Source: Planctomycetales bacterium (lineage in GTDB: Bacteria; 4484-113; JAFGCY01). From it: 32,000 bases of DNA. Of the stretch, positions 10,892-32,000 are shown one piece after another. A program made the position numbers and the translations under genes. The notes under the pieces are model-generated. The model saw nothing but the letters and a program-made list of their open reading frames with translations, made no database searches and was not told the DNA's origin. Each line of letters starts with the position of its first letter. Positions within the stretch are counted from its first letter, which is position 1. Location: assembly GCA_022646745.1 (NCBI GenBank), contig CP060262.1, forward strand, positions 1,410,001 through 1,442,000, read 5' to 3'.

Positions 10892-11344
10892 CTATTCCCC
10901 GTCGCCGTCCGTCTCCACACGCTGGCGGCGCAGCAGTTCCTGGATGCCGGCGGCGTCGATCTCCGCCGGGCGGGAGGCGGCGATGTTCTCTCCCTGGATC
11001 AGCTCGTAGATCTCATGGCGGTGGATCTGCACATGCCGCGGGGCCTTCACCCCGACGCGCACGCTCTCGCCCTTCACGCTGACCACCAGCACCTCGATCT
11101 GGTCCAGCCCGTCCAGCTCGATCACCACGGAGTCGTCCACCTTGCGTGTCAGGCGGATCGGGGACATCGCCCCGTCGTCGCCGCCGGGCATGGCATCAAT
11201 CTGCACATTGCCGGGCATCAGGGAGACGGGCCGGTCCACGGAGAAGGAGAATCTCACCACGCCGCGCTCAACGGAAAGCACCTCGACCTCGTAAGTGGGG
11301 CCGAGCATGATCTTCTCTCCCGGTTTGCGCGTCAGGACCAGCAC
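10892..11344 (-). CDS. csrA: tandem (fused two-domain) CsrA-family RNA-binding protein
   Basis: GTG start. Residues 1-50, MLVLTRKPGEKIMLGPTYEVEVLSVERGVVRFSFSVDRPVSLMPGNVQ, align with CsrA but lack the GVxAPxxVxVHRxEIY motif. Residues ~63-120, IRLTRKVDDSVVIELDGLDQIEVLVVSVKGESVRVGVKAPRHVQIHRHEIYELIQ, form a canonical CsrA domain. Total length is 150 aa versus ~60-75 aa for normal CsrA. Confidence 0.85.
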   Translation of the reverse strand: MLVLTRKPGEKIMLGPTYEVEVLSVERGVVRFSFSVDRPVSLMPGNVQIDAMPGGDDGAMSPIRLTRKVDDSVVIELDGLDQIEVLVVSVKGESVRVGVKAPRHVQIHRHEIYELIQGENIAASRPAEIDAAGIQELLRRQRVETDGDGE

Positions 11345-15356: not shown

Positions 15357-15366
15357 GCCCGTCCCC

Positions 15367-15372
15367 TATAAT
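15367..15372 (+). promoter_or_regulatory. candidate -10 box (TATAAT) upstream of the SDR gene
   Basis: Perfect TATAAT 39 nt before ATG 15411. GGAG SD at 15399-15402. Confidence 0.3.
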
Positions 15373-15410
15373 CCCCCTTGTCAGCCGGGACCACCGGTCG
15401 GAGTGAATGC

Positions 15411-16202: not shown

Positions 16203-16248
16203 AGAGAGAATTCAATCTTGTAAATGTGATTTGCCTTTGGAGTACCGG

Positions 16249-16560: not shown

Positions 16561-16666
16561 TACAGCTGTCCGGCGAGAACCAATAGTACATCACTAGATT
16601 GTGCGGCAGTCACGCCAAAGCGTGACCGCACCCCCACCAGGCCACCGGCCTGGCCTCCACTGCACC

Positions 16667-16701
16667 CTGCAACCAGCAACCTGTAACCTGTAACCTGTAA
16701 C
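16667..16701. repeat. right inverted repeat plus (CTGTAAC)x3 tandem
   Basis: ctgcaaccagcaacctgt (inverse of the left repeat) runs into ctgtaac ctgtaac ctgtaac (16681-16701), ending 1 nt before the subtilase stop codon. Confidence 0.75.
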
Positions 16702-19533
16702 CTAGATGCTCTCCCCAAGGAAATACCCGACCGCCGACAGGTCCACCTCGTTGACGATGCCGTCGAGGTTGCTGTCGTAGAAGGGCAGGTAGCCAGGGCT
16801 GGTCTTCAGCAGGCCGTGCTTGCTGTGGATCAGGTCGTAGTCCACCATGTCCACGTCGTTGTCAGCGTCGGCATCGCCGGGCAGGTTGAAGATCCAGCAG
16901 GGGATCGTCGTGACCGGGCCCTGGTTGCCACCGGCGTCATAGACGTACACATTCAGCTGCGCCGCCTGGTTGGGCAGGCCGGGCACGTTGATCAGGCCGT
17001 CGAACACGCCGCCGCTCTCCACATCGACGATGGTGTCCAGGCCGGGCACCAGCTCACCGAAGGGGGCGACGTCCAGCCAGTAGCGCACCTTGCTCACGTC
17101 CACCGGGTTCTCCACGCTGACGGCGAACTGCTGCAGGTTCGGCGCCAGGCCGACGCTGCTGCCCGGAATGAAGTCCACGCCGTCGATGCTCGGGAAGTCC
17201 TCCTGGTAGGCGCGGCCGACGGTGATGTCGTCCAGCCACCAGCCGGTGGCTTCACCGGTGTCCTCGCCGGCGCCGCTGGCATCGGACTCGAAGAAGAACA
17301 GCACACGCACGGTCTTGCCGGCGAAGGCCGACATGTCAACCGCCGCCGTGCTCCAGCCCGGCAGGTAGCCGCTCCAGTAGCTGTCCTTGCTGACGCCCTT
17401 CAGCTTGCCGGGGCTGTAGCTCGCGCCCTCGTCGTCAGTCACGAGCACCCAGGCGCGGTCCTTCTCGCTGCCACCGTTCTCGATGTTGAAGTGGTGGTGG
17501 AACACCAGGCTCGGGTCGGAGATGCCCTTGAAGCTGATCCGGCGGCTGATCAGCGCGTCGGTCTCGAAGGGGCTGTATGAGTTGAAGTCGTTGACAATGT
17601 GCTGCGCGAAAGCGCCGCTGTTGGTCTGGCCGGCCTGGTCCTTCCACAGCGCGGAGCCGTTGGCACGCACCGTGCCGCTGCTCCAGCCCGCCTGCTGCTT
17701 GACGGCATCCATCAGCGCATCGTTGTAGTAGCGGAAGTCCGCCGGGTAGAAGTCACGCTCGGGGTCCTCGAAGTCCTCCTGCAGCGGGAAGGTGGCCGGA
17801 GAGTTGTCAACGATCACGTCCAGCGAGCGCGAGACGGGCTGGCCGTCGATCACCGTGCTGAAGCGCAGGTTGACACTCTCGAACAGGTAGTTGCTGAAAT
17901 CCACCGTGAAGTCCCAGGGCGCGCTCGTCAGCACCTGGGCCACTTCCTCATTCACGTAGAGCACCACGCTGTCCGGGCTGCCGGCCACGTTGATGCTGAA
18001 CTGCTTCGTGCCGCTGACGGTCAGGCTGTCCAAGAGCGGCAGCTCGATCGCCTCGGCGGCCAGCACCTCGAAGATGCCGGGCAGGTCCACACGGCGCACC
18101 GGGCTGGAGCCGGAGAAGCCGCTGGTCGGCTGGCCGGTGTCGTACATCATCGCGCGGATCTCTGAGTTGGTCAGGTCCGACTTGAAGCTCCACATCAGCG
18201 CGGCCACGGAGGCCACGATCGGGGCGCTGAAGCTGGTGCCCTGGCTGTTCGGCACATAGGCGCTGTCACCGGTCTCGCGGCAGCTCTTGAGCGAGTTGCC
18301 CGGGGCCGCCATGTCGACATAGGTGCCGAAGTTGCTGAAGCCGGCGCGTGCGTCATTGGTGCCGACGGAGGTGGAGCCTGTGCTGATCGAGTTGGTGTAG
18401 CTGCAGGGGTAGTGCGCGTCACTGGTGTTGTCATTTCCGGCTGCGCTGACGAAGATCCCGCCGTTGTTCCAGATGAAGTTGACCATCGCCTGTTCCTGCG
18501 GGACGGGGCCGCCGTAGCTGCCCCAGCTCAGGTTGATCACGTCCGCACCGAGGTTGAAGCCGAGGTAGCAGCCGTCGATGATCGAGCCGAGCGGGGCGGA
18601 GCCGCCGTTGGCGATCTTCACCGGCAGCACGCGGATGTCGGGGGCCACGCCGGTGATGGTGCGCCCGTTGTTGCCCTCCGCCGCCACGATGCCGGCAATG
18701 AAGGTGCCGTGGCCGTCGCCGTCGGAGATGTTCGTGTTGTCATTGATCACGTTCAGCTTCTCGCCGGGGAAGTCCGCCGAGGTGAAGCAGGCGCGGTTCA
18801 GCTCCTCGTGCGTGGTACGCACGCCGGTGTCCACCACCGCCAGCCAGACGTCGCTGGCACCGCGGGTGAAGTCCCAGCCGGTGGAGGCACCGATCTTGTG
18901 CAGGCTCCACTGCCCGCCGCTGCCGCCGTTCGAATTGCTCGACAGGTAGTCCGGGTCATTCGGGGTGAAGCAGGCCTGGTGCAGCGGCTCGTAGAATGCG
19001 TGCTCGACGGCCGGGGCCAGCGAGGCATCGCTGCGAATCGCCATGATGATGCCGGCGGCATCACTGCCGTCCGTCGTCTGGAAGCAGGCGAAATTGTTGT
19101 CAGCCACATAGAGCTGAGTGCGGATCTCCAGCCCATAGTCCTGGGCGATCTTGTCCGTCCAGGCGATGAACTGCGTGTTCTGCTTGTTGATTGCATTGCC
19201 CTGGCTGGCCGCACTGCTGCTGCCTGCGCCCGGGAGCTGGCTGCCGCCCTTGAGCGCCGGGGCCTGCGGGTCGTAGGCCACCATGATCCGGCTGGCGTCA
19301 TAGTCCGTGCCGGCAGTACCGGGACTGTTCTCCAGCCGCAGGTAGGCATCCGCATAGCTGATGCGCTCGCCGCCCTTGAGGTCGAAGTAGGTACCGGCCT
19401 CATCCATCCCACCGGCGGCGGTGTCGCGGCTGGCGGACTGATCGACGGAACTGGACTGTCCCGCGCAGGAGGCGAGCAGGATTGCAAGCAGCAGGAAGAC
19501 GCCCAGACGGGCCGATGTCATGACCAATTTCAT
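16702..19533 (-). CDS. S8 subtilisin-like serine protease lipoprotein with C-terminal dockerin-like Ca-binding repeats
   Basis: Catalytic triad motifs VAVVDTGV, DGHGTFIAG and GTSFSAPIVAS. N-terminal MKLVMTSARLGVFLLLAILLASCAG (lipobox LASC). C-terminus GDADADNDVDMVDYDL...YDSNLDGIVNEVDLSAV. Confidence 0.9.
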   Translation of the reverse strand: MKLVMTSARLGVFLLLAILLASCAGQSSSVDQSASRDTAAGGMDEAGTYFDLKGGERISYADAYLRLENSPGTAGTDYDASRIMVAYDPQAPALKGGSQLPGAGSSSAASQGNAINKQNTQFIAWTDKIAQDYGLEIRTQLYVADNNFACFQTTDGSDAAGIIMAIRSDASLAPAVEHAFYEPLHQACFTPNDPDYLSSNSNGGSGGQWSLHKIGASTGWDFTRGASDVWLAVVDTGVRTTHEELNRACFTSADFPGEKLNVINDNTNISDGDGHGTFIAGIVAAEGNNGRTITGVAPDIRVLPVKIANGGSAPLGSIIDGCYLGFNLGADVINLSWGSYGGPVPQEQAMVNFIWNNGGIFVSAAGNDNTSDAHYPCSYTNSISTGSTSVGTNDARAGFSNFGTYVDMAAPGNSLKSCRETGDSAYVPNSQGTSFSAPIVASVAALMWSFKSDLTNSEIRAMMYDTGQPTSGFSGSSPVRRVDLPGIFEVLAAEAIELPLLDSLTVSGTKQFSINVAGSPDSVVLYVNEEVAQVLTSAPWDFTVDFSNYLFESVNLRFSTVIDGQPVSRSLDVIVDNSPATFPLQEDFEDPERDFYPADFRYYNDALMDAVKQQAGWSSGTVRANGSALWKDQAGQTNSGAFAQHIVNDFNSYSPFETDALISRRISFKGISDPSLVFHHHFNIENGGSEKDRAWVLVTDDEGASYSPGKLKGVSKDSYWSGYLPGWSTAAVDMSAFAGKTVRVLFFFESDASGAGEDTGEATGWWLDDITVGRAYQEDFPSIDGVDFIPGSSVGLAPNLQQFAVSVENPVDVSKVRYWLDVAPFGELVPGLDTIVDVESGGVFDGLINVPGLPNQAAQLNVYVYDAGGNQGPVTTIPCWIFNLPGDADADNDVDMVDYDLIHSKHGLLKTSPGYLPFYDSNLDGIVNEVDLSAVGYFLGESI

Positions 19534-19741
19534 ATCCTCACAGCGATGATGCCCTAAGATGCCTGTCAAAGGGATATTGCCCGGTTACCAGCCGGTATTG
19601 CCTCGGCGCACGTGTCAGGGCGCCGGCGGGCACAGTTTAGACTACCGGCCCCGGCTGGTGTTCCATTTATACCTTATAGATTTGCAGCAATCAATATTCC
19701 CCGGAAAGCTTTAGCCGGATGTGAGCCGGGCTCCACCCCGC

Positions 19742-19747
19742 TATAAT
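19742..19747 (+). promoter_or_regulatory. candidate -10 box (TATAAT) 8 nt upstream of the gltX ATG
   Basis: gcTATAATctgcgcctATG. No Shine-Dalgarno in between, suggesting a leaderless or near-leaderless transcript. Confidence 0.35.
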
Positions 19748-19755
19748 CTGCGCCT

Positions 19756-21213
19756 ATGGCTGGAACACTGAGAGTCCGATTCGCCCCGTCACCGACGGGC
19801 TACCTGCACACCGGTGGCGCGCGCACCGCTCTGTTCAACTACCTCTGGGCCAAGGGCCAGGGCGGCGTGTTCATCCTGCGCGTGGAGGACACCGACGAGG
19901 AGCGCTCCACCGAGGAAAGCATGCGCGCGATCCTCGACGGCCTGCAGTGGCTCGGGATCATGTGGGACGAGGGGCCGGACCCGAAGCAGTTCGGCGAGTC
20001 CATCGGGCCCTTCCCGCCCTACTACCAGAGCATGCGCCGCCCGCTGCACCAGGAATACATGAAGAAGCTCTGGGACGCGGGGCATGTGTTCTACTGTCCG
20101 GCAACGGCTGAGGAAATGACTGGCCCGGACGGCAAGAAGCTGACCTTCTCCCCCTACCGCGACATCACGAGAGAGGAGCAGGAGAAGCGGCTGGCTGCCG
20201 GCGAGGTGATGCCGGTGCGCTTCCGCTGCCCACGTGATGTGGAGGTCAGCTGGGAGGATGCCGTGCGAGGCAAGGTTACGTTCAGCAGCAATGAGGTCGG
20301 CGACTTCGTGCTGTTCAAGGGCAACGGCCAGCCGTTGTACAACTTCGTCGTGGTCTGTGATGACATCGACATGCAGATCACGAACGTGCTGCGCGGCGAG
20401 GACCACATCTCCAACACCCCGAAGCAGATCCTCTTGCATGAGGCGCTTGGGCATACCCCGCCGGAGTTCGGGCATGTGCCGCTGATCGTCGGGATGGACC
20501 GCCAGAGGTTGTCAAAGCGCCACGGTGCCACGGCGGTGGATGCCTACGAGGAGCAGGGTGTGCTGCCGGAGGCGATGGTGAACTTCCTCGCGCTGATCGG
20601 CTGGGCACCTGGGGATGACCGCGAGAAGATGACGCTCGAGGAGATGAAGCAGGCCTTCGATCCGCACCGCTGCACCAAGGCGGCGGGGGCTTTCAACCCT
20701 GACAAGCTGAAATTCTTCAATGAGCTGTACATCCGCGAGCTGTCGCCGGATGCGCTGCTGGAGCGCCTGCGCCGCTTCATCCCGCCTGTCTGGCTTGAGC
20801 ACCGCGGTGAGGACTATGCAAAGCATGTGTTCACCCTGTTCCAGGAGAAGATCGCCTACCTGAACGAGATGGAGGCAAATGCCTGGTATTTCTTCCGCGA
20901 CCCCGTCGAGGCTGACAACAACGAGAAGAGCGTTGCCAAGTTCCTCACGGAGAATGAAAGTGCGAAGCAGGTGTTGTCCGAGATCGCAGCCGGGATGGAA
21001 GCGCTGGGCGATGGCGAGTGGACCGAGGAGAAGCTGGCCCCGATCGTGGACGGCTTCGTGGAGTCAAGCGGACTCGGGCGTGGCAAGGTGATGCAGCCCT
21101 GGCGCGTGGCCCTGACGGGCGATGCGATCAGCCCTGGCTTCTACGACCTCGTTGTCACGCTCGGCAAGGAGACGGTGCTGCGCCGCGTACAGCCCTGGAT
21201 CGACAGGCTGTAG
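19756..21213 (+). CDS. gltX: glutamate--tRNA ligase
   Basis: RFAPSPTGYLHTGGARTALFNY (HIGH-type motif), RLSKRHG (KMSKS-type motif), 485 aa. Confidence 0.95.
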   Translation: MAGTLRVRFAPSPTGYLHTGGARTALFNYLWAKGQGGVFILRVEDTDEERSTEESMRAILDGLQWLGIMWDEGPDPKQFGESIGPFPPYYQSMRRPLHQEYMKKLWDAGHVFYCPATAEEMTGPDGKKLTFSPYRDITREEQEKRLAAGEVMPVRFRCPRDVEVSWEDAVRGKVTFSSNEVGDFVLFKGNGQPLYNFVVVCDDIDMQITNVLRGEDHISNTPKQILLHEALGHTPPEFGHVPLIVGMDRQRLSKRHGATAVDAYEEQGVLPEAMVNFLALIGWAPGDDREKMTLEEMKQAFDPHRCTKAAGAFNPDKLKFFNELYIRELSPDALLERLRRFIPPVWLEHRGEDYAKHVFTLFQEKIAYLNEMEANAWYFFRDPVEADNNEKSVAKFLTENESAKQVLSEIAAGMEALGDGEWTEEKLAPIVDGFVESSGLGRGKVMQPWRVALTGDAISPGFYDLVVTLGKETVLRRVQPWIDRL

Positions 21214-21215
21214 GA

Positions 21216-21275
21216 GGTCAGTCCCGCGAAGCAGGACTGACCAGGGGTGCTGCATCCCGCCGCAGGCGGATGCAG
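21216..21275 (+). terminator. two consecutive 8-9 bp hairpins after gltX (no U tract)
   Basis: ggtcagtcc-cgcgaagca-ggactgacc (21216-21242) and ctgcatcc...ggatgcag (21250-21275). Confidence 0.4.
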
Positions 21276-21291
21276 TGGTCGCATTGCCAAC

Positions 21292-21319
21292 GGAGGCGCG
21301 CAACTTGCTTGCGCGCAAT
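21292..21319. repeat. family E hairpin repeat, copy 2
   Basis: ggaggcgcgcaacttgcttgcgcgcaat. Confidence 0.8.
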
Positions 21320-21365
21320 GTGGCGCAGCAATCATTCTCAGTGTCGCAATCCTGTCAACCATATC

Positions 21366-21393
21366 ATTGTGCGCAAGCGAGTTGCGCACCTCC
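21366..21393. repeat. family E hairpin repeat, copy 3 (inverted)
   Basis: attgtgcgcaagcgagttgcgcacctcc. Its reverse complement ggaggtgcgcaactcgcttgcgcacaat matches copy 2 at 25 of 28 positions. Confidence 0.8.
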
Positions 21394-21465
21394 AGACTTA
21401 CTTCTGCCTGTTGGCTCCTGCCTTTTGCCTGTTGCCCGATCCTTCAGCATGCGATAATCCCTTCC

Positions 21466-23088
21466 ATGCTGCGACTCCCCCTCCGCCTGCTTGTCATCTG
21501 CTGCGCGTTGACTGCCACTGCCTTCGCGCAGGAACCTGCCCCGCGCGACATCGTCACCGATGGCTGCAGCCTGGTCTCACCCTTCAATGTGATGAGCGCC
21601 ACTGTTGCCACATCCGAAAACCTCTACCCCTTGATCTGGGGCAGTGAACTGGCCAGTTCCAGCGATACCCGCGGCCTGCAGGGCACCAAGCCCGCCCCGG
21701 CCTGGCTCGGTACTTACGGCAGCGGGCGCGTCGCCATCTGGGACGGGCACCCGGCATTCTTCACCGCCGGTGCCGACGGACGTGATGACAACGACCGGTT
21801 GCGCACCCAGCTGATTGACTGGCTGCGGGATGGCGGCAGCGTGGCCTTCGCCCGCGGGCATGGAGAGAAGCCGATGGGCGAGGTGTTCAGCGGCGTGCCA
21901 TGGCAGCACCTGCTTGACGGCAGCGCCGAACCGCATGAAATTGATGGCGAGCTGACAACGGAGAATCTTGCTGGCAGCGGGCTGCTGGTGATCGGTTCCA
22001 GCTGGCAGCGCATCACTGAAAGTGAACTCGATGCCGTGGAGGATTATGTGCTCAACGGTGGCGGCCTGCTAGTGATCGGCATCGGCTGGGCCTACAGCGG
22101 TTATGCCGACGATCCCGACCCGGACCAGTACATCCCCAACCGGCTCGGTGAGCGCTTCGGCTGGCGGGTGCAGTTCAGCACCATCAAGGACCCCGGCTCG
22201 CCGATGGGCGAGGCCGGCACCCCGGCATTCAGTGTGCTGCCACTGGAACAGTACAATCCCGGCCGCATCGTGGTGATCTTGGAAGATCCTGACAGTGTGG
22301 TGCAGCGGGCCGCCGACAACCCGCAGGACATCTTCGTGGTGGAGGGGGAGCACACCGGGCTGTGCCTGCCGAATGAGTACTGGGGCCAGCTGGAATCCGT
22401 CGGCGGCATCATCGGGCTGTTTGATGAGATGTACGTGTCGCACAACCTGCTGATCGGCAATGCCAATCCACCCTACGATGGTGCGAAGCAGTGGTTTGTG
22501 CCCCAGCAGTCTGATGAGCCCGGCTGGTACATGCACAGTGGCAACCCGGTGGTCTACAAGCAGTACGCCGCGAAGGACATCGTGGAAACCTACAACAATG
22601 AGCACAGGCTGGGCTGGGGCATCGTGCATGAACTGGGGCACAACATGCACATCTCCAGCTGTGGCAACAACATGGTGCCGGACGGCACCGGAGAGAACTG
22701 GGCCAATGTCTGGAGCGTGTGGACCAACAACGCGATGGGCTGGCCGAACCATGAGAACTACGGCAGGGCAGGCGGGGACTACCACGAGCATCCGGACTAC
22801 GCGAAGCTCAGCTCTGACAACTGGATCCTGCTGGGCTGCCTGGACATGATCTGGCAACGCTACGGCTGGGACGGGATGCAGGCCTTCCTGACGGATGTGG
22901 CAACCCGGCGCGCAGCCGGGGAGAAGCTCAAGGACAATGCGGAGCGCCAGCGCCTGCTGATCGAGGGCATGAGCATCGGCTACGGCATCGACTTCTCGGA
23001 GCTGTTCGCCCACTGGGGCTTCCCCGTCAGCGACGAGACCCGTGAGCTGTTGTCAAAATACCCGAAGAACGACATCCCAATTCCATAG
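21466..23088 (+). CDS. secreted M60-like (enhancin-like) zinc metallopeptidase
   Basis: Signal peptide MLRLPLRLLVICCALTATAFAQE. HELGHNMH followed by E 18 residues later fits the gluzincin HExxH(8-28)E pattern I associate with M60-like peptidases. The track ORF's N-terminal extension (21247-21465) lies over repeats. Confidence 0.7.
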   Translation: MLRLPLRLLVICCALTATAFAQEPAPRDIVTDGCSLVSPFNVMSATVATSENLYPLIWGSELASSSDTRGLQGTKPAPAWLGTYGSGRVAIWDGHPAFFTAGADGRDDNDRLRTQLIDWLRDGGSVAFARGHGEKPMGEVFSGVPWQHLLDGSAEPHEIDGELTTENLAGSGLLVIGSSWQRITESELDAVEDYVLNGGGLLVIGIGWAYSGYADDPDPDQYIPNRLGERFGWRVQFSTIKDPGSPMGEAGTPAFSVLPLEQYNPGRIVVILEDPDSVVQRAADNPQDIFVVEGEHTGLCLPNEYWGQLESVGGIIGLFDEMYVSHNLLIGNANPPYDGAKQWFVPQQSDEPGWYMHSGNPVVYKQYAAKDIVETYNNEHRLGWGIVHELGHNMHISSCGNNMVPDGTGENWANVWSVWTNNAMGWPNHENYGRAGGDYHEHPDYAKLSSDNWILLGCLDMIWQRYGWDGMQAFLTDVATRRAAGEKLKDNAERQRLLIEGMSIGYGIDFSELFAHWGFPVSDETRELLSKYPKNDIPIP

Positions 23089-25280: not shown

Positions 25281-26708
25281 TCAGCCCTGCTCGCGAGCCA
25301 GCTGGCCGAGCCGCTGGATCGCCCCCTCCACTTCATCCGTCCAGCGCAGCGCGCAGTTCAGCCGGATGCAGTTGCCATAGCGCGCCTGGCTGGTGAAGAT
25401 CGGCCCCGGCGCAATCGAGATCCCCTCCGCCATCGCCGCCTGGAACAGCCGGATCGCGTTGGCTCCACCCGGCAGCTCCACCCACAGCACGTAGCCACCG
25501 CTGGGCCGGGTCAGGCGTGTGCCGCGCGGGAAGTGCTCGCGCACTGACAGCGAGCAGCGCTCCATGCAGTCCCTGAGTGTGCGGCGGAAGCGGCGCAGGT
25601 GTGCATCATAGGCCCCGCTGGCGAGGAAATCCGCCAGCGCCAGCTGCTGGATCGACGGTGCGCCGATCGTGGTGTTGAACTGCAGCTGCTCCATTTCCCC
25701 GAGCAGGGACTGCCCCGCCGCAATCCAGCCGATGCGCAGCCCGGGCGCCAGGCTCTTCGAGAAGGACGAGCACAGCACCACACGGCCCTCCGTATCCCAG
25801 GCCTTGATCGGCGTCGGGCGGCGGCCGGAGTACTGCAGCTCACCGTAGATGTCGTCCTCCAGCACCATGAAGTCGTGCTTCGCCGCCAGCTCCAGCAGCT
25901 TCTGCTTGGACTGGTCCGGCATCAGGCTGCCGAGCGGGTTGCTGAAGCAGGGGATCGTCAGCACGGCGCGGATCCGCCGCACACTGGCCGCCTCCTCCAG
26001 TGCCCGCAGGTCCATCCCGGTCTGCGGGCTGGTCGGCAGCTCCAGCGCACGCAGGCCGTGGTGCTCCAGCACCTGCAGCAGGCCGAAGAAGGTCGGCGAT
26101 TCCACCGCGACTGTGTCCCCCGGCTTGGTCAGTGCCTGCAGGGTCAGGTTCAGCGCATCCATCCCCCCGCTGGTGATCAGGATGTCCCGCGAGCTCAGCT
26201 CGCCCATCCACTTCAGGCTGCGCGCCGCGATCTGCCGCCGCAGCTCCGGCAGGCCCGGCGGGAACTGGTACTGCATTGCAGCTTCGGTCTGCTCGCGTAC
26301 GCAGCGGCCGAGGATCGAAGCCATCCGCTTCACGGGCAGGAAGTCCAGGCTGGGAGCCGCGCAGCCCAGCTGCACATGCTCCGGGTTGGCCGCACTGTGC
26401 AGGAAGTCGTGCAGCATGCGGTTGCCCGGTACATTGGTTCGTTCCATGTCCGGGCTGGTGATCGCGGGAAGCTCCAGCGGCCGCGCCGTACTGTGTCGCA
26501 CATAGTGGCCGCTCTGGGGCAGGGTCTCGATCAGTCCACGGCTTTCCAGCAGGCCGTAGGCCTGCATCACGGTCGAGATGCTGATGCCGAGTTCCGTGCT
26601 CATCGCACGCAGCGACGGCATCTTGTCCCCGGGTTGCATCACACCGCTGCCGATCCGGCGGGCGATGTTGTCCGCGACAGTTTCGTAAAGGAATCCCTGC
26701 TGAGCCAT
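25281..26708 (-). CDS. MocR-family transcriptional regulator (GntR wHTH + class I aminotransferase-like domain)
   Basis: N-terminal SLRAMSTELGISISTVMQAYGLLESRGLIE wHTH. C-terminal fold-type-I domain with SFSKSLAPGLRIGW (PLP-lysine motif). Its stop abuts the azlD stop with 0 bp between (convergent). Confidence 0.9.
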   Translation of the reverse strand: MAQQGFLYETVADNIARRIGSGVMQPGDKMPSLRAMSTELGISISTVMQAYGLLESRGLIETLPQSGHYVRHSTARPLELPAITSPDMERTNVPGNRMLHDFLHSAANPEHVQLGCAAPSLDFLPVKRMASILGRCVREQTEAAMQYQFPPGLPELRRQIAARSLKWMGELSSRDILITSGGMDALNLTLQALTKPGDTVAVESPTFFGLLQVLEHHGLRALELPTSPQTGMDLRALEEAASVRRIRAVLTIPCFSNPLGSLMPDQSKQKLLELAAKHDFMVLEDDIYGELQYSGRRPTPIKAWDTEGRVVLCSSFSKSLAPGLRIGWIAAGQSLLGEMEQLQFNTTIGAPSIQQLALADFLASGAYDAHLRRFRRTLRDCMERCSLSVREHFPRGTRLTRPSGGYVLWVELPGGANAIRLFQAAMAEGISIAPGPIFTSQARYGNCIRLNCALRWTDEVEGAIQRLGQLAREQG

Positions 26709-26709: not shown

Positions 26710-26778
26710 GCATAACAGATGTACCTTATGCTGCAGGAATTGCAACTGTTATGCTTGTTTTGCAGGCATCTGTTATGC
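26710..26778. promoter_or_regulatory. candidate operator: 11 bp perfect inverted repeat plus a direct copy (CTGTTATGC)
   Basis: gcataacagat (26710-26720) and atctgttatgc (26768-26778) are exact reverse complements. A further ctgttatgc lies at 26746-26754. The first copy begins 2 nt upstream of the regulator's ATG. Confidence 0.4.
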
Positions 26779-26939: not shown

Positions 26940-27113
26940 TCAGGCCGAGGCGATCCTGTCCAGCAGGTAGATCTTCTCGCGGGTATCAAGGCCTTCAAGC
27001 ACCGGGTTGCGGCGCAGTTCCATCAGGAGCAGCTCGAAATCCCAGCTGTTGACCATGTGGTTGAAATGGCTGGTTTCCTCCAGCCGCTGCGAATGTAGTT
27101 CTTCAGCCCGCAT
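26940..27113 (-). CDS. small protein S1 (57 aa), WDFE-LL--LR-NPV family; not in the ORF track
   Basis: Hand translation: MRAEELHSQRLEETSHFNHMVNSWDFELLLMELRRNPVLEGLDTREKIYLLDRIASA*. GGGAGG lies 5 nt upstream of the ATG. Same length as S3 and collinear with S2 and S3 from the Trp to the C-terminus (34 residues each). Confidence 0.6.
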   Translation of the reverse strand: MRAEELHSQRLEETSHFNHMVNSWDFELLLMELRRNPVLEGLDTREKIYLLDRIASA

Positions 27114-27320
27114 GCGGACCTCCCGTTTCCCTTTTCTCCCAACCGCAGCCAGTCCATTTGCCCCGAACTGCTGCGATTGAAATAATCGTAATTAAGTTAC
27201 CTATAGTTAGCCGTAATGAAAAGGGATTTTAATTAACAACCAGTTAAATGGAAGTCAAGCGGTAGTTAACCTTTGGTAAGGCCAGTACTGATGCGGATTG
27301 ATCGCTTGCCGGGCGAGTGC

Positions 27321-27536
27321 TCAGGCCCTGGCGAAGTATTCCTTTGCAATGATCGGTGCGCCGCTTACCACGCATTTCAGGACGGGGTTTCTGCGCAGGT
27401 CTGCCAGTAACTCCTCAAAGTCCCAGCGCTGCAGCAGGTGCTGCTGGTCCCATTCCGCCTGTTCCCAGCGATTGATGCCCCGCTGGTTCCTGTTCTCCTC
27501 ACTGCCCCGCTCTTCCCGGATTCCGTCTACCTGCAT
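27321..27536 (-). CDS. small protein S2 (71 aa), WDFE-LL--LR-NPV family
   Basis: MQVDGIREERGSEENRNQRGINRWEQAEWDQQHLLQRWDFEELLADLRRNPVLKCVVSGAPIIAKEYFARA. GGAGG lies 4 nt upstream. The leader ggaatgcactggaggca is conserved with S3. Confidence 0.65.
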   Translation of the reverse strand: MQVDGIREERGSEENRNQRGINRWEQAEWDQQHLLQRWDFEELLADLRRNPVLKCVVSGAPIIAKEYFARA

Positions 27537-27706
27537 GTTGCCTCCAGTGCATTCCTTCCCACAGCGCGGATCGCATTCCAGCCAACCATCCTTGTCAGCC
27601 TGCGAGCTAATTGATAATACCGAAATTTAACCGGAATTTCAGAATATCCGGCAAATTTAACTTTTATTCCCAAAGCTTGATCAGGTGGCCAGGTCCGCCC
27701 CGTAAC

Positions 27707-27736
27707 AAAAAGTGGCCCCACCATCTGCAGGGCCAC
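27707..27736 (-). terminator. rho-independent terminator of lipoprotein A
   Basis: Minus strand: gtggccc-loop-gggccac followed by tttttg. The stem sequence is shared with the terminator of lipoprotein B. Confidence 0.7.
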
Positions 27737-27792
27737 TCCATATCCACTCTGGGTAGCCGGCTCACCTCCCTGTGATGCCGGCCTCGATTCAC

Positions 27793-29289
27793 TTAGTTAT
27801 CGTTACCGCTGTCGTCTCCGCCACCCTTGCCGGAGTTGTCATCGTCTTCACCGTCATCGTCGCCGCCCTTGCCGGAGTTGTCGTCATCCCCGCCATTGTC
27901 GTCGCCCATGTCATCGCCGCCGTTGTCGTCGCCGGCACCGTCATCATTGCCGCCGCCATTGTCGTCACCGGCGCCATCATCATTGCCACCGCCATTGTCA
28001 TCACCGGCGCCGTCATCGTTGCCGTTGCCGCCATTGTCATCACCGATGTCATCGCCTCCGTTGTCGTCACCGCCGTTGCCGCCGCTGATGCCATCGTCCT
28101 CGAGCTTGACGCGGCGGGCATGCCAGCTGTCACCGCTCAGGTCGCCGGTGATCTCCACGAACATCCCGACCATGAACAGCGCGGGATCCGCATTGCGGTC
28201 GTCGCCGATGCGCCAGACGGTGCTGTCGGAGAGGTCGAAGTCCTGGCCGGCCACCGTGATGATGCTGTCGGAGATCTTCTCGATGAAGCCCTTCACCTCG
28301 AGCTCGTCGATGCCCGTGCCGCTGCCGATGCCGCTGTCATCGCCGCTGCCGGAGCCGCTGCCGATGAAGCCGTCCTCGGTCTTGACCTTGCTCGCGATCC
28401 AGCCGCCGTTGCCGTCGGTGAATCCCTCCACCTCGACGAAAGTGCCGGCGGTGAACTGGGCCGGGTCCGCATTGCGGTTGTCACCGATCCGCCAGACCGT
28501 GCTGCTGGACAGGGCGAAGGTGCTGCCGCCGACGGTGATGCTGTCGGCGCTGATGCTCTCGATCAGTCCCTTGACCTCAAGCTCGTGCAGGCCGCTGTTG
28601 CTGCTGTCATCGATACTGCCGCCGCTGAAGCTGGTGTCCGGCAGTCCGTCGCCGTCGCTGTCATCGAAGCTGTCATCGAAGCTGCCGTCGTTGTTGTCGT
28701 CCACGCGGGTCTCGCCGCCGCGGCGGCGGTGCTGGCGGTGGCTGCTCTCGGAGTTGCCCTTGTCATCGTTCAGGTGGAACTCGACCTCAAGCGCATCAAG
28801 CTGCCCGTCGCTGTCGGAGTCGCTAACGCCGATCTGCTGCAGCAGGTCCGTGACTGCCTGGTTGGCCAGGTCCACCGGGAAGTACAGCTCGATCTCGTCG
28901 AGGCGGCCGTCACCGTCCAGGTCCTGGGTGGACTTGAACTCGATCTTGACCAGGTAGCCGTCGCCGCTGGGGATGCCCTTGAACTCGTACTTGCCGAGGC
29001 TGTCGGTCACATCCGTGCCCATCAGCTGGCCAGTGGAGGTGTTGATCAGGCTGATCAGCAGGCCGGCCATGCCGTCGCCCACAGCGCTGGAGGCCTTCAC
29101 ATCCGTGCCCTGAAGCACGGTGCCATTCACATTGGTGGTGCCGGCGGCCACACCGTTCCCGTTGCCGAGGCCATTGTCACCCGGCAGGGGGGCGCTTGCA
29201 CCGCCACCGCCGCAGGAGGCGATGGTCAGGCTGGTGATGACCGCCGCGAGGAGGCCGATTGCGTTGTTTCTGAATCCCGTGTTTTTCAT
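27793..29289 (-). CDS. lipoprotein A: CarboxypepD_reg-like domain, Asp-rich Ca-binding-like loops, two DUF5666-like repeats, ~95 aa D/G/N/S tail
   Basis: ATG 29289 (AGGAG 8 nt upstream). MKNTGFRNNAIGLLAAVITSLTIASCGGGG lipobox. GTDVTDSLGKYEFKGIPSGDGYLVKIEF. DLDGDGRLDEIE. Two copies of ELEVKG-IE-IS...STVWRIGD-RNADPA-F..G-FVE. C-terminus GGNGGDDNGGDDIGDDNGGNGNDDGAGDDNGGGNDDGAG...DDSGNDN. Confidence 0.85.
   Translation of the reverse strand: MKNTGFRNNAIGLLAAVITSLTIASCGGGGASAPLPGDNGLGNGNGVAAGTTNVNGTVLQGTDVKASSAVGDGMAGLLISLINTSTGQLMGTDVTDSLGKYEFKGIPSGDGYLVKIEFKSTQDLDGDGRLDEIELYFPVDLANQAVTDLLQQIGVSDSDSDGQLDALEVEFHLNDDKGNSESSHRQHRRRGGETRVDDNNDGSFDDSFDDSDGDGLPDTSFSGGSIDDSSNSGLHELEVKGLIESISADSITVGGSTFALSSSTVWRIGDNRNADPAQFTAGTFVEVEGFTDGNGGWIASKVKTEDGFIGSGSGSGDDSGIGSGTGIDELEVKGFIEKISDSIITVAGQDFDLSDSTVWRIGDDRNADPALFMVGMFVEITGDLSGDSWHARRVKLEDDGISGGNGGDDNGGDDIGDDNGGNGNDDGAGDDNGGGNDDGAGDDNGGGNDDGAGDDNGGDDMGDDNGGDDDNSGKGGDDDGEDDDNSGKGGGDDSGNDN
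27796..28100. repeat. coding low-complexity tandem repeats (about 36 bp period in part) encoding the D/G/N tail of lipoprotein A
   Basis: gccgccattgtcgtcaccggcgccatcatcattgcc-type units repeated (DDGAGDDNGGGN on the minus strand). Confidence 0.8.
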
Positions 29290-29370
29290 GTCAGTGCTCC
29301 TGAGTTGAATCTGATGTTGGTAGTGTACCTGCCAAGTAAATCCATAAACAGGTTCACTAATACGAATTAA

Positions 29371-29383
29371 CACCGGTGACACT
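29371..29383. promoter_or_regulatory. conserved CACCGGTGACACT element 82 nt upstream of the lipoprotein A start
   Basis: An identical 13-mer lies at 30950-30962, 83 nt upstream of the lipoprotein B start. The CACCGGTG core is palindromic. Confidence 0.45.
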
Positions 29384-29471
29384 CATGCATGGATTAATAC
29401 TGCATTAGGTGAAAATGATGATAAGCCCTTTATTTAAGGGACTTGTCGAGTATCCAGGGCAAAGGTGCACG

Positions 29472-29513
29472 TAAAAATGTGACCCTTATAACAGTCGCAG
29501 AAACAAGGGTCAC
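29472..29513 (-). terminator. candidate terminator after S3
   Basis: Minus strand: gtgaccctt-17 nt loop-aagggtcac followed by attttta. Confidence 0.45.
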
Positions 29514-29554
29514 TAATGTTTTTCAGTGGAGTTTGCCTGCAGCTTATTCCCGGT

Positions 29555-29728
29555 TCAGGCGCAGGCGAGATAGTCCTGGGCCACGATGAAGCAGTCATCG
29601 GTATCGCCGCGCATCACGGGGTTGTGGCGCAGGGCCGTCAGCAGTTCCTCAAAGTCCCAGCGGCGCAGTTGCTCGAGGTAGTACTCCTCGACCACAAGCC
29701 GCCCGGCGATGGTTGTCCGGTCATTCAT
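29555..29728 (-). CDS. small protein S3 (57 aa), WDFE-LL--LR-NPV family
   Basis: Trimmed from track ORF 29555..29797 to ATG 29728, which has GGAGG 6 nt upstream: MNDRTTIAGRLVVEEYYLEQLRRWDFEELLTALRHNPVMRGDTDDCFIVAQDYLACA. Confidence 0.65.
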   Translation of the reverse strand: MNDRTTIAGRLVVEEYYLEQLRRWDFEELLTALRHNPVMRGDTDDCFIVAQDYLACA

Positions 29729-29867
29729 GACCTGCCTCCATGCATTCCCGTCTACAGCACACTGGCCATCCGGCGGACTTCCCTGTCCGCTGGCCATGCA
29801 TACATTTTATCGGAATTTAACTTTCCTGTGGAGGGACAATTCCAGGCTGTTTCAGCGGTCACATTCC

Positions 29868-29900
29868 AAAAAAAAGTGGCCCCGCAATCCGCAGGGCCAC
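29868..29900 (-). terminator. rho-independent terminator of lipoprotein B
   Basis: Minus strand: gtggccc-tgcggattgcg-gggccac followed by tttttttt. Confidence 0.75.
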
Positions 29901-29952: not shown

Positions 29953-30867
29953 TCAGATGTCGTCGCCGGAGTCATCACCGGAATCGTCTCCACTATCGTC
30001 ACCGGAGTCATCTCCACTGTCGTCGCCGGAGTCATCGCCGCTGTCATCACCGGAATCATCGCCGACATCATCGCCACTGTCATCGCCGGAGTCGTCTCCG
30101 ACATCGTCGCCGCCATTGTCATCCCCGCCGTTGTCGTCACCGACATCGTCGCCGCCATTGTCGTCCCCACCGTTGTCGTCGCCGATGTCATCGCCGCCGT
30201 TGTCGTCGCTGGAGTCGTGGTCGTCATCATCATCGGAGATGCCGTCGGCATCGCTGTCATCGAAGCTGTCCTCAAACTGGCCATCGCCGTCGTCGTCGAT
30301 CAGGGTCTCGCCGCTGCGGTGGCGGTGCTCACTGTGGTGGTCCTCCATATGGCCGTGGTCGTCGCTGTAATGGAACTCAACCTCCACTGCATCGAACTCA
30401 CCGTCATCGTCCGAGTCACTCACACCGATGCGCTGCAGCAGCTGGGTGACGGACTGGTCAGCAAGGTTGACCGGGAAGTTCAGCTCGACATGGTCCGGAT
30501 TGCCGTCGCCGTCCAGGTCCTGGCTGGACTGGAACTCGACCTTGACCATGTAGCCGTTGCCGCTCGGCACGCCCTTGAACTCATAATGTCCGGTGCTGTC
30601 GGTCACATCGGTGCCGAATGACTGGCCGCTGCCGTTGAGCAGGGAGACGAGGATGCCGGGCAGGCCGGAGCCGACCGTGGCGGAAACCTTTACATCGCTG
30701 CCCTGCACCAGCTGGCCGCTGACATTGGTGGTACCCGGAGCAACGCCGTTGCCGGGGTCGGGCTGGCCGGCCGCTCCACCGCCGCCGCCGCAGGAAGATA
30801 CTGCGAGAGCGCCCAGCAGGATGCCGGAGGCGAGGATACGGTTGCTCCACTTGCTTGAGTTCTTCAT
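29953..30867 (-). CDS. lipoprotein B: paralog of A lacking the DUF5666-like repeats, with a His-rich segment and ~90 aa (DDSG/DDNGG)n tail
   Basis: ATG 30867 (GGAG upstream). MKNSSKWSNRILASGILLGALAVSSCGGGGG lipobox. GTDVTDSTGHYEFKGVPSGNGYMVKVEF. DLDGDGNPDHVE. EFHYSDDHGHMEDHHSEHRHRSGE. The tail ends DDSGDDSGDDSGDDSGDDSGDDSGDDSGDDSGDDI. Confidence 0.85.
   Translation of the reverse strand: MKNSSKWSNRILASGILLGALAVSSCGGGGGAAGQPDPGNGVAPGTTNVSGQLVQGSDVKVSATVGSGLPGILVSLLNGSGQSFGTDVTDSTGHYEFKGVPSGNGYMVKVEFQSSQDLDGDGNPDHVELNFPVNLADQSVTQLLQRIGVSDSDDDGEFDAVEVEFHYSDDHGHMEDHHSEHRHRSGETLIDDDGDGQFEDSFDDSDADGISDDDDDHDSSDDNGGDDIGDDNGGDDNGGDDVGDDNGGDDNGGDDVGDDSGDDSGDDVGDDSGDDSGDDSGDDSGDDSGDDSGDDSGDDSGDDI
29956..30240. 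repeat. coding tandem repeats (12 bp DDSG units, then DDNGG/DDVG units) of lipoprotein B
   Basis: gtcatcaccggaatcgtctccactatcgtcaccggagtc.... Synonymous codons vary between units. Confidence 0.8.
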
Positions 30868-30911: not shown

Positions 30912-30968
30912 ACTGAAAGTGATCGAACAGTGTCACTACTGGCTGATTGCACCGGTGACACTTTCAGT
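30912..30968. promoter_or_regulatory. 10 bp inverted repeat ACTGAAAGTG / CACTTTCAGT enclosing CACCGGTGACACT, in the divergent lipoprotein B / MocR intergenic region
   Basis: actgaaagtg (30912-30921) and cactttcagt (30959-30968). A third actttcagtg lies at 31137-31146, 3 nt before the regulator's ATG. Confidence 0.45.
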
Positions 30969-31148
30969 TGCCCCGCCAGTTGATACACGGATACCTATTT
31001 AGATATCATTGCCGTTTGGAACATGTGTTCTTTTCTGAATAAATGATAGGCATTCTCAGTTCCCGGGGCCGCTGGCAAGTGTGCCCGCCCCTAATTGAAA
31101 CAAGTGTCTCTTGCCCGGGATAGTCACAGCGGGGATACTTTCAGTGCA

Positions 31149-32000
31149 ATGGATCTAAGAATTGACAAAGACAGCGAGCAGCCGATCTACGAGCAGATCC
31201 GCCGGCAGATCGTGCAGCTCGTCCGTGACGGGCTGCTGCCCCCGGGCAGCAAGATCCCTTCCGTGCGCCAGCTTGCGCTGAAGCTCGGTGTCGGCAAGAA
31301 CACGGTGAGCCAGGCCTATGACGAACTGTCGGCCGAAAGCATCATCGAGACCAGGCATGGCAGTGGTACATATATCACTGACAGCCCGGGGATTGCCATC
31401 GAGCACAACCTGCGCACCACGAAGGAGAACGGCAACGGCGGAGATTCCCGCAAGATGCGCTGGGATCCCTATAACTTCCGCAGCGAATTCTTCGGCCTGC
31501 CGCGCAGCCGTCGTGACGAGGAGCTGGTTGACTTCACCCGTGCTTCGCCTGATCCGGAACTGTTCCCCTTTGAGCGCATCAAGCAGGTCAGCGCCAACAT
31601 GCTGTGGTACCCCAAGGAGTTCTTCTTCGATGTGGGACACCCCCAGGGCTACCAGCCGCTGGTGGAACACCTCGAGAAGCAGATGGCGCTCAGTGGGGTG
31701 GCGATGGCGGAAGGCGAGAATGACATCATCGTCACCGCCGGCTTCCGCCGTGCACTCGACCTGATCCTCGGCTTCATCCTGCAGCCGGGCCAGAAGGTCG
31801 CCGTGGAGGTGCCGAGCTACAGCGGCCTGCTCAACGTGCTGATTGCCAAGCGCGTCGGCATTGAGCCGGTGCCGATGGACAGCGAAGGCATGGACACCGC
31901 CTACCTCGAGGGCCTCGTTCGCCGTGGTGAGATTTCCGCGGTGATCACTATCCCGACCTACCACAATCCGACCGGGATCACGATGTCCCAGGCCCGCCGC
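31149..32000 (+). CDS. MocR-family transcriptional regulator (N-terminal 284 codons; continues past the right edge)
   Basis: Hand translation from ATG 31149: MDLRIDKDSEQPIYEQIRRQIVQLVRDGLLPPGSKIPSVRQLALKLGVGKNTVSQAYDELSAESIIETRHGSGTYI (GntR wHTH), then an aminotransferase-like region ...VTAGFRRALDLILGFILQPGQKVAVEVPSYSG...ITIPTYHNPTG. Open to the window end, so absent from the ORF track. Confidence 0.85.
   Translation, partial: MDLRIDKDSEQPIYEQIRRQIVQLVRDGLLPPGSKIPSVRQLALKLGVGKNTVSQAYDELSAESIIETRHGSGTYITDSPGIAIEHNLRTTKENGNGGDSRKMRWDPYNFRSEFFGLPRSRRDEELVDFTRASPDPELFPFERIKQVSANMLWYPKEFFFDVGHPQGYQPLVEHLEKQMALSGVAMAEGENDIIVTAGFRRALDLILGFILQPGQKVAVEVPSYSGLLNVLIAKRVGIEPVPMDSEGMDTAYLEGLVRRGEISAVITIPTYHNPTGITMSQARR

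Follow-up and report, generated by a model that had tools for sequence, protein, structure and literature searches.

A family of small proteins with a conserved WDFE core at a lipoprotein locus of UBP7/4484-113-type bacteria

Some bacterial regulators are very small or short-lived. Sda of Bacillus subtilis is a 46 aa kinase inhibitor degraded by ClpXP through its C-terminal residues, CtrA of Caulobacter has a C-terminal Ala-Ala degron, and FliW is a small acidic CsrA antagonist. The present work concerns three paralogous small proteins, here called S1, S2 and S3, which are encoded in 32,000 nucleotides of DNA from a bacterium labelled Planctomycetales (assembly GCA_022646745.1, contig CP060262.1, positions 1,410,001 to 1,442,000 of the forward strand). 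This whole stretch is referred to as the window, and positions are counted from its first letter. The S proteins are read here as short-lived, small cytoplasmic alpha/beta binding or regulatory proteins, and the whole proposed chain, comprising hetero-oligomer, operator, CsrA control and degron, is given a probability of about 40%.

Two other systems serve for comparison. The CsrA consensus obtained by SELEX is RUACARGGAUGU, with a 6-nt loop and paired AC/GU, and the CsrB repeat reads CAGGA(U/A/C)G (PMC7652899). Daptides are peptides made by ribosomes and modified after translation (RiPPs), whose biosynthetic gene clusters (BGCs) hold on average 2.3 precursors per BGC with a conserved leader motif and a C-terminal Thr that does not vary, together with a pyridoxal phosphate (PLP) aminotransferase. 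This enzyme acts on the invariant C-terminal residue and needs a RiPP recognition element (RRE) protein, a decarboxylase, a methyltransferase and a transporter (PMC10028931).

The S genes and their protein family

The preliminary description of the window had reported three paralogous open reading frames (ORFs), each with a GGAGG-type Shine-Dalgarno (SD) sequence and with 34 residues from a conserved Trp to the C-terminus. The ORF listing confirms the frames at 26940..27113 (S1, 57 aa), 27321..27536 (S2, 71 aa) and 29555..29728 (S3, 57 aa), all on the minus strand. GGAGG stands 4-6 nt 5' of each ATG, at 27119-27123 for S1 (spacer 5 nt), 27541-27545 for S2 (4 nt) and 29735-29739 for S3 (6 nt), and the distance of 34 residues holds in S1, S2 and S3 alike. 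S1 reads MRAEEL...WDFELLLMELRRNPVL...DRIASA, S2 ends in PIIAKEYFARA and S3 in TDDCFIVAQDYLACA. The columns invariant among the three paralogs are M1, W-D-F-E-x-L-L-x-x-L-R-x-N-P-V, one Ile and the C-terminal A-x-A. The default minimum of the ORF lister is 60 aa, and S1 and the 57-aa S3 fall below it.

S3 is assigned 57 aa because an SD precedes ATG 29728 and every ortholog has this length. The longest S3 ORF starts at ATG 29797 (80 aa); this form was rejected, as no SD precedes that ATG, which is the predicted 5' end of the transcript, 7 nt past the -10 box TAAAAT (box end 29804). In GenBank, S1 is identical to KDL29_04555 (P0005) and S3 to KDL29_04540 (P0007), and S2 is present as the 99%-identical KDL29_04550; all are labelled hypothetical proteins. 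S2 consists of the 57-aa family protein plus a lineage-specific 14-aa insertion, ENRNQRGINRWEQA (codons 14-27, region 27495-27536), in the variable N-terminal part. One close relative (P0002) alone has the same insertion, from which it follows that the N-terminal segment tolerates insertions and deletions.

When 5.8 billion proteins were searched by word index with the family alignment as query, 17 came back, all of 57-71 aa, and an exhaustive HMMER profile search of 1.84 billion cluster representatives returned just 7 family representatives. Two further HMMER matches were dismissed as repeat artefacts merely containing 'HNPVL'. The 17 or more homologs have the same invariants and a length of 57-58 aa, or 71 aa in the P0001/P0002 lineage. 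About 26 family sequences share M1, W, D, E, L, P, V and the terminal A-x-A without exception, their length is 57-58 aa except in S2-type proteins with the insertion, and the core reads H-phi-phi-x-x-W-D-F-E-x-L-L-x-x-L-R-x-N-P-V-L (phi, hydrophobic). The types are MRAEEL...WDFELLLMELR...DRIASA (S1), ...WDFEELLAELR...PIIAKEYFARA (S2) and ...TDDxFIVAxDYLAxA (S3). Synteny was compared in six divergent genomes (L001, L006, L007, L008, L010 and L016), with neighbours taken within ±10 kb. S1 orthologs were found in L006, L007, L008, L010 and L016, and S3-type orthologs in L008 and L016 and also as P0018 and P0019. A six-frame search of the fetched loci with a hidden Markov model gave 2-3 S copies per locus and none elsewhere in the window.

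The S genes are protein-coding, under purifying selection and of fixed length. The ratio of nonsynonymous to synonymous differences (pN/pS) between orthologs is 0.32-0.36 (about 0.36 for S1), and because pS is near saturation (0.61-0.71) while pN is about 0.22, selection acts on the protein. The preliminary description had proposed a dN/dS comparison; across orthologs pN/pS is thus about 0.3, with the frame and the 57-aa length kept in at least six other metagenome-assembled genomes (MAGs). Start, stop, length and SD are preserved in all genomes compared, and the window's own paralogs share the invariant residues despite a pS of about 0.5. These figures bear directly on the possibility that the conservation reflects RNA or DNA elements or chance ORFs that are not translated. 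The upstream leaders are indeed very strongly conserved at the nucleotide level, and small ORFs in a GC-rich genome sit among many spurious ones on both strands, but the saturated synonymous sites next to conserved amino acids, the fixed gene boundaries and the residues kept between diverged paralogs leave this explanation strongly disfavoured.

The mean column entropy of all members (20 sequences) is 2.45 in the N-terminus, 0.60 in the core, 2.43 in the loop of residues 40-46 and 1.29 in the C-terminus. The truly variable segments are therefore residues 1-18 and the loop 40-46, and the conserved ones are the core (24-39) and the C-terminal 11 residues. The last ~18 residues had been described as divergent. 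This holds between paralogs, which still keep the tail pattern phi-phi-phi-x-x-[DE]-[YR]-phi-A-x-A, but not among S2 orthologs, where the last 11 residues are the best-conserved segment of all, with an entropy of 0.16 against 0.34 for the WDFE core. Such an alternation of conserved, variable and conserved parts has the appearance of a small folded domain with a floppy N-terminal extension, and not of a leader joined to a diversifying core.

The S proteins are acidic, with isoelectric points (pI) of 4.5-5.3, and their maximum Kyte-Doolittle hydropathy over 15 residues is at most 1.3. Sequence analysis found no signal peptide, transmembrane segment or hydrophobic stretch in them. They are predicted to be cytoplasmic because they are acidic and have no hydrophobic segment.

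The family is confined to few genomes. Among 185,579 GTDB species representatives, four contain it: 'UBP7 HKST-UBA01', 'UBP7 HKST-UBA03', 'AC1.30' and a MAG labelled Planctomycetales. The S2 of 'UBP7 HKST-UBA01' is 99% identical to that of the window, so this genome evidently belongs to the window's organism or a close strain. Other members lie on contigs binned as phylum 4484-113, and a scan of metagenome contigs added one short contig only. The family thus occurs at one locus per genome in UBP7/4484-113-type MAGs. An origin in mobile elements was rejected after tblastn against plasmids and phages gave no match.

The core motif had been said to fit no known family, and this was borne out, since library scans and the exhaustive search gave no relatives outside the S family. 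Scans of S1, S2 and S3 against Pfam, NCBIfam (where models of Nif11 and NHLP leaders should be included), PHROGs and PADLOC gave no match at thresholds of E ≤ 1-10. The profile check against Nif11, NHLP, Pfam and TIGRFAM models that the preliminary description had suggested gave 0 families for S1, S2 and S3 at E ≤ 1, both by hmmscan against NCBIfam and against Pfam.

An AlphaFold2 (AF2) model of S2, made with the family alignment, had a mean predicted local distance difference test score (pLDDT) of 56 and was too poor to use. The model of S1 had a mean pLDDT of 66, with 70-85 for residues 21-50, so that only the core is usable. It contains a helix at 26-35 (FELLLMELRR), a turn at NP, strands at 38-40 and 47-49 and a short C-terminal helix, and the variable segment 40-46 sits at the predicted hairpin turn. 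Foldseek with the S1 model found nothing in the PDB at E < 5. The best PDB profile match was the C-terminal domain of TFIIH p52, over 36 residues aligned to WDFEeLLaeLRrnPVLrG, with a non-significant E of 0.036. A small helical adaptor or regulator, one of the two readings offered in the preliminary description, is compatible with a cytoplasmic, acidic protein that has the pattern of a folded domain and its own conserved promoters; it needs correction in that the core is predicted as a helix plus beta-hairpin and is not purely helical.

Promoters, terminators and leaders of the S genes

Each S gene is predicted to be transcribed as a unit by itself: a terminator lies upstream of it, and its conserved sigma-70-like promoter carries a GTTAAAT box in the spacer. 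The putative S2 promoter (27614..27642, minus strand) reads CTGAAA-17-TATTAT; its spacer contains the invariant box GTTAAATT (27625-27631), and another GTTAAAT lies 30 bp upstream (27655-27661). That of S3 (29804..29832, minus) reads TCCACA-17-TAAAAT, with the spacer box GTTAAATT at 29815-29821. The S1 promoter (27230..27258, minus) is TTGACT-17-TAATTA, with GTTAAAT in the spacer on the plus strand (27243-27249) and flanking rTTAAyT boxes. A terminator after the lipoprotein A gene (27706..27736, minus), GUGGCCC...GGGCCAC followed by U5, parts that gene from the S2 unit; its loop exceeds 8 nt, so the pattern scan skipped it and the hairpin was read directly from the sequence. After the lipoprotein B gene the same arms are followed by U8 (29868..29900, minus), and a hairpin with a U-run after S3 (GUGACCCUU...AAGGGUCAC AUUUUU; 29473..29513, minus) is the probable S3 terminator. 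Similar terminator hairpins precede most S2/S3-type genes in the other genomes.

GTTAAAT occurs five times in the window (0.34 expected), and four of these sites fall within S promoter regions; the fifth, at 23998, has no accompanying promoter and was treated as chance. The extended motif GTTAAATTnnGrTAwwAT is found in the window at the S2 and S3 sites only (0.01 expected). The S1-type promoter, TTGAy-17-TAATTA, is conserved in six genomes and differs from the S2/S3 promoter. Since GTTAAAT lies in the spacers of both promoter types, an operator common to all S promoters is likely.

The S1-type promoter region (27230-27275, minus) is almost invariant between the window and L006, L007, L008, L010 and L016. 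It has three rTTAAyT boxes, of which the direct copies are 33 bp apart and one is inverted in the -35/-10 spacer, and conserved GGCTAAnTAT and TACGATTAT elements lie downstream of the boxes. The region resembles an operator whose regulator would also act on the S2/S3 promoters.

The S2 and S3 transcripts begin with long leaders. The S2 5' untranslated region (27537..27606, minus, about 70 nt) has an outer stem, a hairpin at 27580-27600 (GGCUGAC-AAGGAUG-GUUGGCU) with GGA in its loop, and an invariant block GCUGUrG..GGAAUGCA..GGAGGC. The S3 leader (29729..29797, minus, about 69 nt) has a hairpin at 29773-29790 (GCGGAC-AGGGAA-GUCCGC) within an outer stem UGGCCA/UGGCCA, followed by the same block and the SD; its predicted minimum free energy is -30.6 kcal/mol (z -2.4). 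UGCAyUG in the block can pair with CAUGCA, which comprises the start codon and the next codon, leaving the SD in the loop. The invariant block stands upstream of S2/S3-type genes only, in all loci, and the leader is likewise conserved before S2/S3-type genes in L006, L007, L008 and L010.

The hairpins were scored in each sequence separately, as a MAFFT/RNAalifold alignment misplaced the inner hairpin. In seven of eight leaders GGA lies in the loop of a 4-7 bp hairpin. The stems covary and all differ in sequence (GGCUGAC/GUUGGCU, GCGGAC/GUCCGC, UGGUC/GACCG, GGAGCC/GGCUCC, CGGAC/GUCCG and others), and the loop is fixed as AGGGAA or AAGGAUG. Together with the closing pairs it reads ACAGGGAAGU or ACAAGGAUGG, in agreement with the CsrA consensus, and the hairpin presents ACA(R)GGA(W)G. 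The SD of S2 and S3 (GGAGG) contains another GGA, with GGAAUGCA just upstream. The S2/S3 leaders thus combine GGA in the loop of a short hairpin with GGA overlapping the SD, as is expected of a CsrA-regulated leader. Rfam scans of the locus and of the whole window returned no RNA family for the leaders, and the window contains no tRNA or tmRNA.

Outside the S locus proper, at 10892..11344 (minus), the window encodes a 150-aa protein with two stretches matching Pfam CsrA (6.9e-27). It is a candidate trans-acting regulator of the S2/S3 leaders, whose sequences point to translational control of the CsrA type. The N-terminal CsrA copy is shorter and more degenerate, and such a single-chain 'pseudo-dimer' seems unusual. 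Its gene adjoins that of a 720-aa protein that matches Asp_protease_2 weakly and has an N-terminal segment of hydrophobic character.

Gene order and neighbouring proteins

The gene order around the S genes is fixed in the six genomes: one S2/S3-type gene follows each lipoprotein gene, and one S1-type gene comes last. On the divergent strand an optional lipoprotein B gene with its S2/S3-type gene precedes the genes for DUF5666 lipoprotein A, the S2-type protein and the S1-type protein. The opposite strand encodes a 509-aa MocR/PdxR-like regulator (MocR509), a 610-615-aa lipoprotein, a protein of about 220 aa, usually a 98-aa protein, and a secreted PA-M28-PDZ peptidase. The S genes outnumber the lipoprotein genes by one wherever the locus is complete, and a lipoprotein gene and the S gene after it appear to have been duplicated as a unit. 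In L007 the copy after lipoprotein B is S2-like and not S3-like.

Lipoprotein A (27793..29289, minus, 498 aa, followed by S2) has the lipobox IASC and, by Pfam, a CarboxypepD_reg-like domain and two DUF5666 domains. Lipoprotein B (29953..30867, minus, 304 aa, the same length as in L001, followed by S3) has the lipobox VSSC and a CarboxypepD_reg-like domain. Both end in long, very acidic, G/D/N-rich tails of low complexity (GDDNGG..., GDDSGDD...; 27793-28130 and 29953-30250, minus), and both carry DxDxDG-like loops after the CarboxypepD_reg-like domain; tails and loops suggest cation binding. The length of lipoprotein A varies in its tail between near-identical strains, 498 vs 503 aa. A sequence found upstream of both lipoprotein genes, GTGTCACCGGTG (29371-29382 and 30950-30961, minus), has three matches allowing one mismatch (0.19 expected) and was set aside for want of conservation in other genomes; even L001, a near-identical strain, has just one copy. 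Literature on DUF5666 and UBP7 yielded nothing relevant to the S locus.

The coupling of lipoprotein and S genes could mean that pre-lipoproteins have the S proteins as their dedicated cytoplasmic escorts or homeostatic sensors, in a switch like that of Hag, FliW and CsrA. An S2/S3 protein would bind its cognate pre-lipoprotein ahead of export and, set free by it, would bind and antagonise CsrA and so couple translation to secretion. One S2/S3-type gene after each lipoprotein gene, apparently duplicated with it, would suit such a role, as would the small size and the FliW-like acidity of the S proteins (by pI), the CsrA-type sites on the S2/S3 leaders, the presence of a csrA gene, and the AUGGAU and AGGAG SD in the lipoprotein A leader itself. 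We nevertheless regard this switch as unlikely. The S proteins have no Pfam similarity to FliW, CesT or SecB-type chaperones, and the strong GGA hairpins belong to the S mRNAs, with no clear counterpart on the lipoprotein mRNAs. For S1-type genes there is no cognate lipoprotein, the types are not strictly paired (as the S2-like copy after lipoprotein B in L007 demonstrates), and distant lipoprotein A homologs have no S gene called nearby, as confirmed in six frames for L018 only.

The conserved peptidase raises a different possibility, namely that the S proteins are exported signalling peptides or ligands whose A-x-A-COOH is recognised either by the lipoproteins or by the secreted M28 aminopeptidase through its PDZ domain. 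C-terminal residues are the typical ligands of PDZ domains, the M28-PA-PDZ peptidase is present at the locus in all six genomes, and the C-terminus of the S proteins is invariant. Export is hard to reconcile with proteins that have no signal peptide, hydrophobic segment or double-glycine leader, and no transporter is conserved at the locus (AzlCD is absent from L010). With the peptidase secreted and the S proteins predicted to be cytoplasmic, this role appears very unlikely.

MocR509 is divergent from the lipoprotein and S genes; its 5' part (31149..32000, plus) runs off the window. The protein scores 337.5 bits against NCBIfam PdxR (cutoff 320). Neither a second MocR (475 aa, 25281-26708) nor AzlCD belongs to the conserved part of the locus. 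Both neighbouring PLP proteins are full-length MocR proteins with a GntR helix-turn-helix (HTH) and PF00155. Three copies of ACTGAAAGT lie between lipoprotein B and MocR509, at 30912-30920 (plus), 30960-30968 (minus) and 31137-31145 (minus), the last of them 4 nt before the MocR509 start codon; the window has four copies in all (0.04 expected), and the layout looks like that typical of MocR operators. Directly upstream of the 475-aa MocR gene, GCATAACAG occurs three times, at 26710-26718 (plus), 26746-26754 (minus) and 26770-26778 (minus), as two direct copies and one inverted, and is probably this gene's own operator. Since the repeats beside the MocR genes differ from the GTTAAAT box, the case for a MocR protein as regulator of the S promoters is weakened.

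The preliminary description had also allowed a leader plus variable core peptide. This would make the S proteins RiPP-type precursors or scaffolds, with WDFE..LL..LR.NPVL as the recognition (leader) sequence and the C-terminal part or Ala modified, extended or released. Several similar short ORFs in one cluster, with a conserved internal motif and an invariant C-terminal residue, are formally daptide-like, and two PLP-fold proteins and a peptidase are encoded nearby. The reading is poorly supported. No leader or precursor model of NCBIfam or Pfam matches the S proteins at E ≤ 1. A Gly-Gly (GG/GA) cleavage motif is not conserved, for the x-G after NPVL has C, S or I in place of G as well. The S tail is conserved and shows no conserved pattern of Cys, Ser or Thr, the variable parts are the N-terminus and an internal loop and not a C-terminal 'core', and each S gene has its own promoter and long regulated leader, unlike typical co-transcribed precursor arrays. 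A criterion of conserved leader and variable core would, however, miss cofactor-type RiPPs with conserved cores.

The surroundings argue in the same direction. Among conserved neighbours within ±10 kb in the six genomes there is no maturase or exporter: no radical-SAM, YcaO, LanB/C/M, ATP-grasp, P450, RRE/PqqD-like, methyltransferase, dehydrogenase or ABC/C39 exporter gene. The daptide set (DUF-RRE protein, oxidative decarboxylase, class III aminotransferase, methyltransferase, RRE-peptidase and ABC transporter) was likewise not found in the six neighbourhoods. The PLP proteins are full-length GntR-HTH MocR regulators, one of them above the PdxR cutoff, and the M28/PDZ peptidase, which has a signal peptide, acts outside the cytoplasm, whereas the S proteins have no export signal. 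A precursor role, quite improbable in our estimate, would require either enzymes encoded elsewhere in the genome or an unprecedented activity of the MocR PLP domains, in which the M28/PDZ peptidase could also take part.

More speculative still, and far from probable, is a new chemistry at the peptide C-terminus, assisted by the MocR PLP domain, with the S proteins as its substrates or scaffolds or, in a related form, that S1 and S2/S3 make up a new bacterial heterodimeric mini-fold which switches partners with CsrA and couples lipoprotein export to translation. The MocR-like transcription-factor family is not known to act on peptides. If it were true, MocR-assisted processing of the invariant C-terminal Ala would place the S proteins in a RiPP-like or cofactor-like class so far unrecognised, found in a candidate phylum.

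The MocR509 stop codon overlaps the start of the 610-615-aa lipoprotein gene by 4 nt in L001, L006, L007 and L010 (4/6), and in L008 the gap is 5 nt. In L001, where the sequence continues past the right end of the window, the lipoprotein (3009-4847, minus) has 612 aa and two dockerin-like repeats (DYDHNGEVGISDL... and DGDGNGLITLADI...) with no Pfam match; its start overlaps the MocR509 stop as ATGA, an unusual operon partner for a transcription factor. The 612-, 212- and 98-aa neighbours have no match in Pfam, NCBIfam or PADLOC. Further away, the region 11400-23088 of the window is rich in secreted or putative peptidases, including the weakly Asp_protease_2-like protein (720 aa), an S8 subtilase (955 aa) and an M60-like protein (613 aa). 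Together with the M28/PDZ peptidase just outside the window, these genes suggest a proteolytic lifestyle.

Proposed role and comparison with known systems

In the favoured reading of the S proteins as short-lived cytoplasmic regulators, the conserved 39-residue part would fold, as modelled, into a module of helix, NP turn, beta-hairpin and short C-terminal helix, preceded by a variable and indel-tolerant extension of 18 residues. The proteins would act by binding other proteins, as regulators or adaptors on the cytoplasmic side of an envelope lipoprotein/peptidase locus. S1 probably forms hetero-oligomers with S2/S3, which are proposed because both types always co-occur. As the one conserved cytoplasmic protein in the locus whose type is known, the MocR/PdxR-like regulator is the first candidate partner, though the differing repeats beside the MocR genes make it a weaker one. 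S protein levels would be controlled in three ways: by a repressor at the GTTAAAT operator, by CsrA, which would block translation at the leader hairpin and SD, and possibly by a ClpXP-type protease, for which the non-polar A-x-A C-terminus may act as an ssrA/CtrA-like degron. All ~26 family sequences, among them the 20 in the entropy table, end in A-x-A-COOH without exception.

Several points weigh against this chain. Both structure models fall in the low to moderate range of confidence (mean pLDDT 56 and 66), and Foldseek gave no analogue. The coupling of S and lipoprotein genes is not obligatory, because two distant lipoprotein A homologs (46% identity), in unrelated contexts, have no S gene called nearby, which a six-frame search confirmed for L018 only. 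The GGA motifs are short, and the csrA gene is 16 kb away and of an unusual two-domain form, so that CsrA control is an inference. The regulator at the S promoters is probably neither of the MocR proteins. What speaks for the S1-S2 hetero-oligomer is co-occurrence, the partner is a candidate at most, and the invariant A-x-A may be a packing requirement instead of a degron. Whatever probability the favoured reading and the alternatives leave over belongs to something else.

Small proteins of fewer than 60 residues are systematically missed and rarely classified, and the S family is a clean case: supported by selection, with no relative among 1.84 billion representatives, fixed in place in an envelope locus and equipped with elaborate regulatory DNA and RNA of its own. 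It is new, having no curated or solved relative, and it is confined to a candidate phylum without a cultured member. As a kind of object, a lineage-specific small regulatory protein is already known, and a new mechanism is not indicated by anything found. At present the family is of modest practical value: it is well defined and yields testable hypotheses. If the S proteins regulate the lipoprotein/peptidase locus, they would offer a handle on surface control in probably proteolytic sludge and sediment organisms; if CsrA control is true, the S leaders would be a first concrete CsrA target in UBP7-type bacteria, with the 150-aa protein as a two-domain CsrA.

Among known systems, WXG100/Esx proteins are also tandem paralogous small proteins, with a conserved Trp at the junction of two predicted helices. 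They differ in length (~100 aa vs 57 aa) and motif (W-x-G vs W-D-F), Pfam WXG100 does not match the S proteins, and no EssC/FtsK-type ATPase gene of a type VII secretion system lies near the S loci examined. The TFIIH p52-C/p8 (Tfb5) pair gave the best PDB sequence match to the S core. The p8/p52C fold runs helix, strand, strand, short helix, in the same order as the S model, and this small module pairs with a partner that looks paralogous to it, as S1 might with S2. The match at E 0.036 involves human-type TFIIH p52 sequences only, Foldseek and Pfam Tfb5/Tfb2_C give no match, and the system is eukaryotic; the resemblance is a lead only.

Daptides and pearlins resemble the S locus in their multiple similar short ORFs, conserved internal motif, invariant C-terminal residue and, nearby, PLP-fold proteins. 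The S locus differs from them in having no RRE protein, oxidative decarboxylase, methyltransferase, LanB-like peptide aminoacyl-tRNA ligase (PEARL), S2P peptidase or ABC exporter. In comparison with daptides, the S C-terminus is Ala and not Thr, the PLP proteins are of PF00155 class I/II fused to GntR and not of class III (PF00202), and the tail is not hypervariable.

In the favoured reading the S proteins resemble small unstable regulators of the Sda and CtrA type. They are tiny and soluble, with a helical core and a conserved non-polar C-terminus, each has its own tightly regulated unit, and they too would act by binding another protein and not by catalysis. They differ in showing no similarity of sequence or structure, in the beta-hairpin of the core, and in the presence of 2-3 paralogs per locus beside lipoprotein genes. 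The comparison with the CsrA-repressed leaders of B. subtilis hag and E. coli glgC (PMC7652899) concerns the S mRNA and not the S protein; differences are that the csrA gene of the window encodes two domains in one chain and that the S leaders have no Rfam match. The likeness lies in the S2/S3 hairpin, with its 6-7-nt loop ACA(R)GGA(W)G and AC/GU-type closing pairs, in further GGA motifs including one in the SD, which together make up the classical architecture of two-site repression, and in the presence of csrA in the window.

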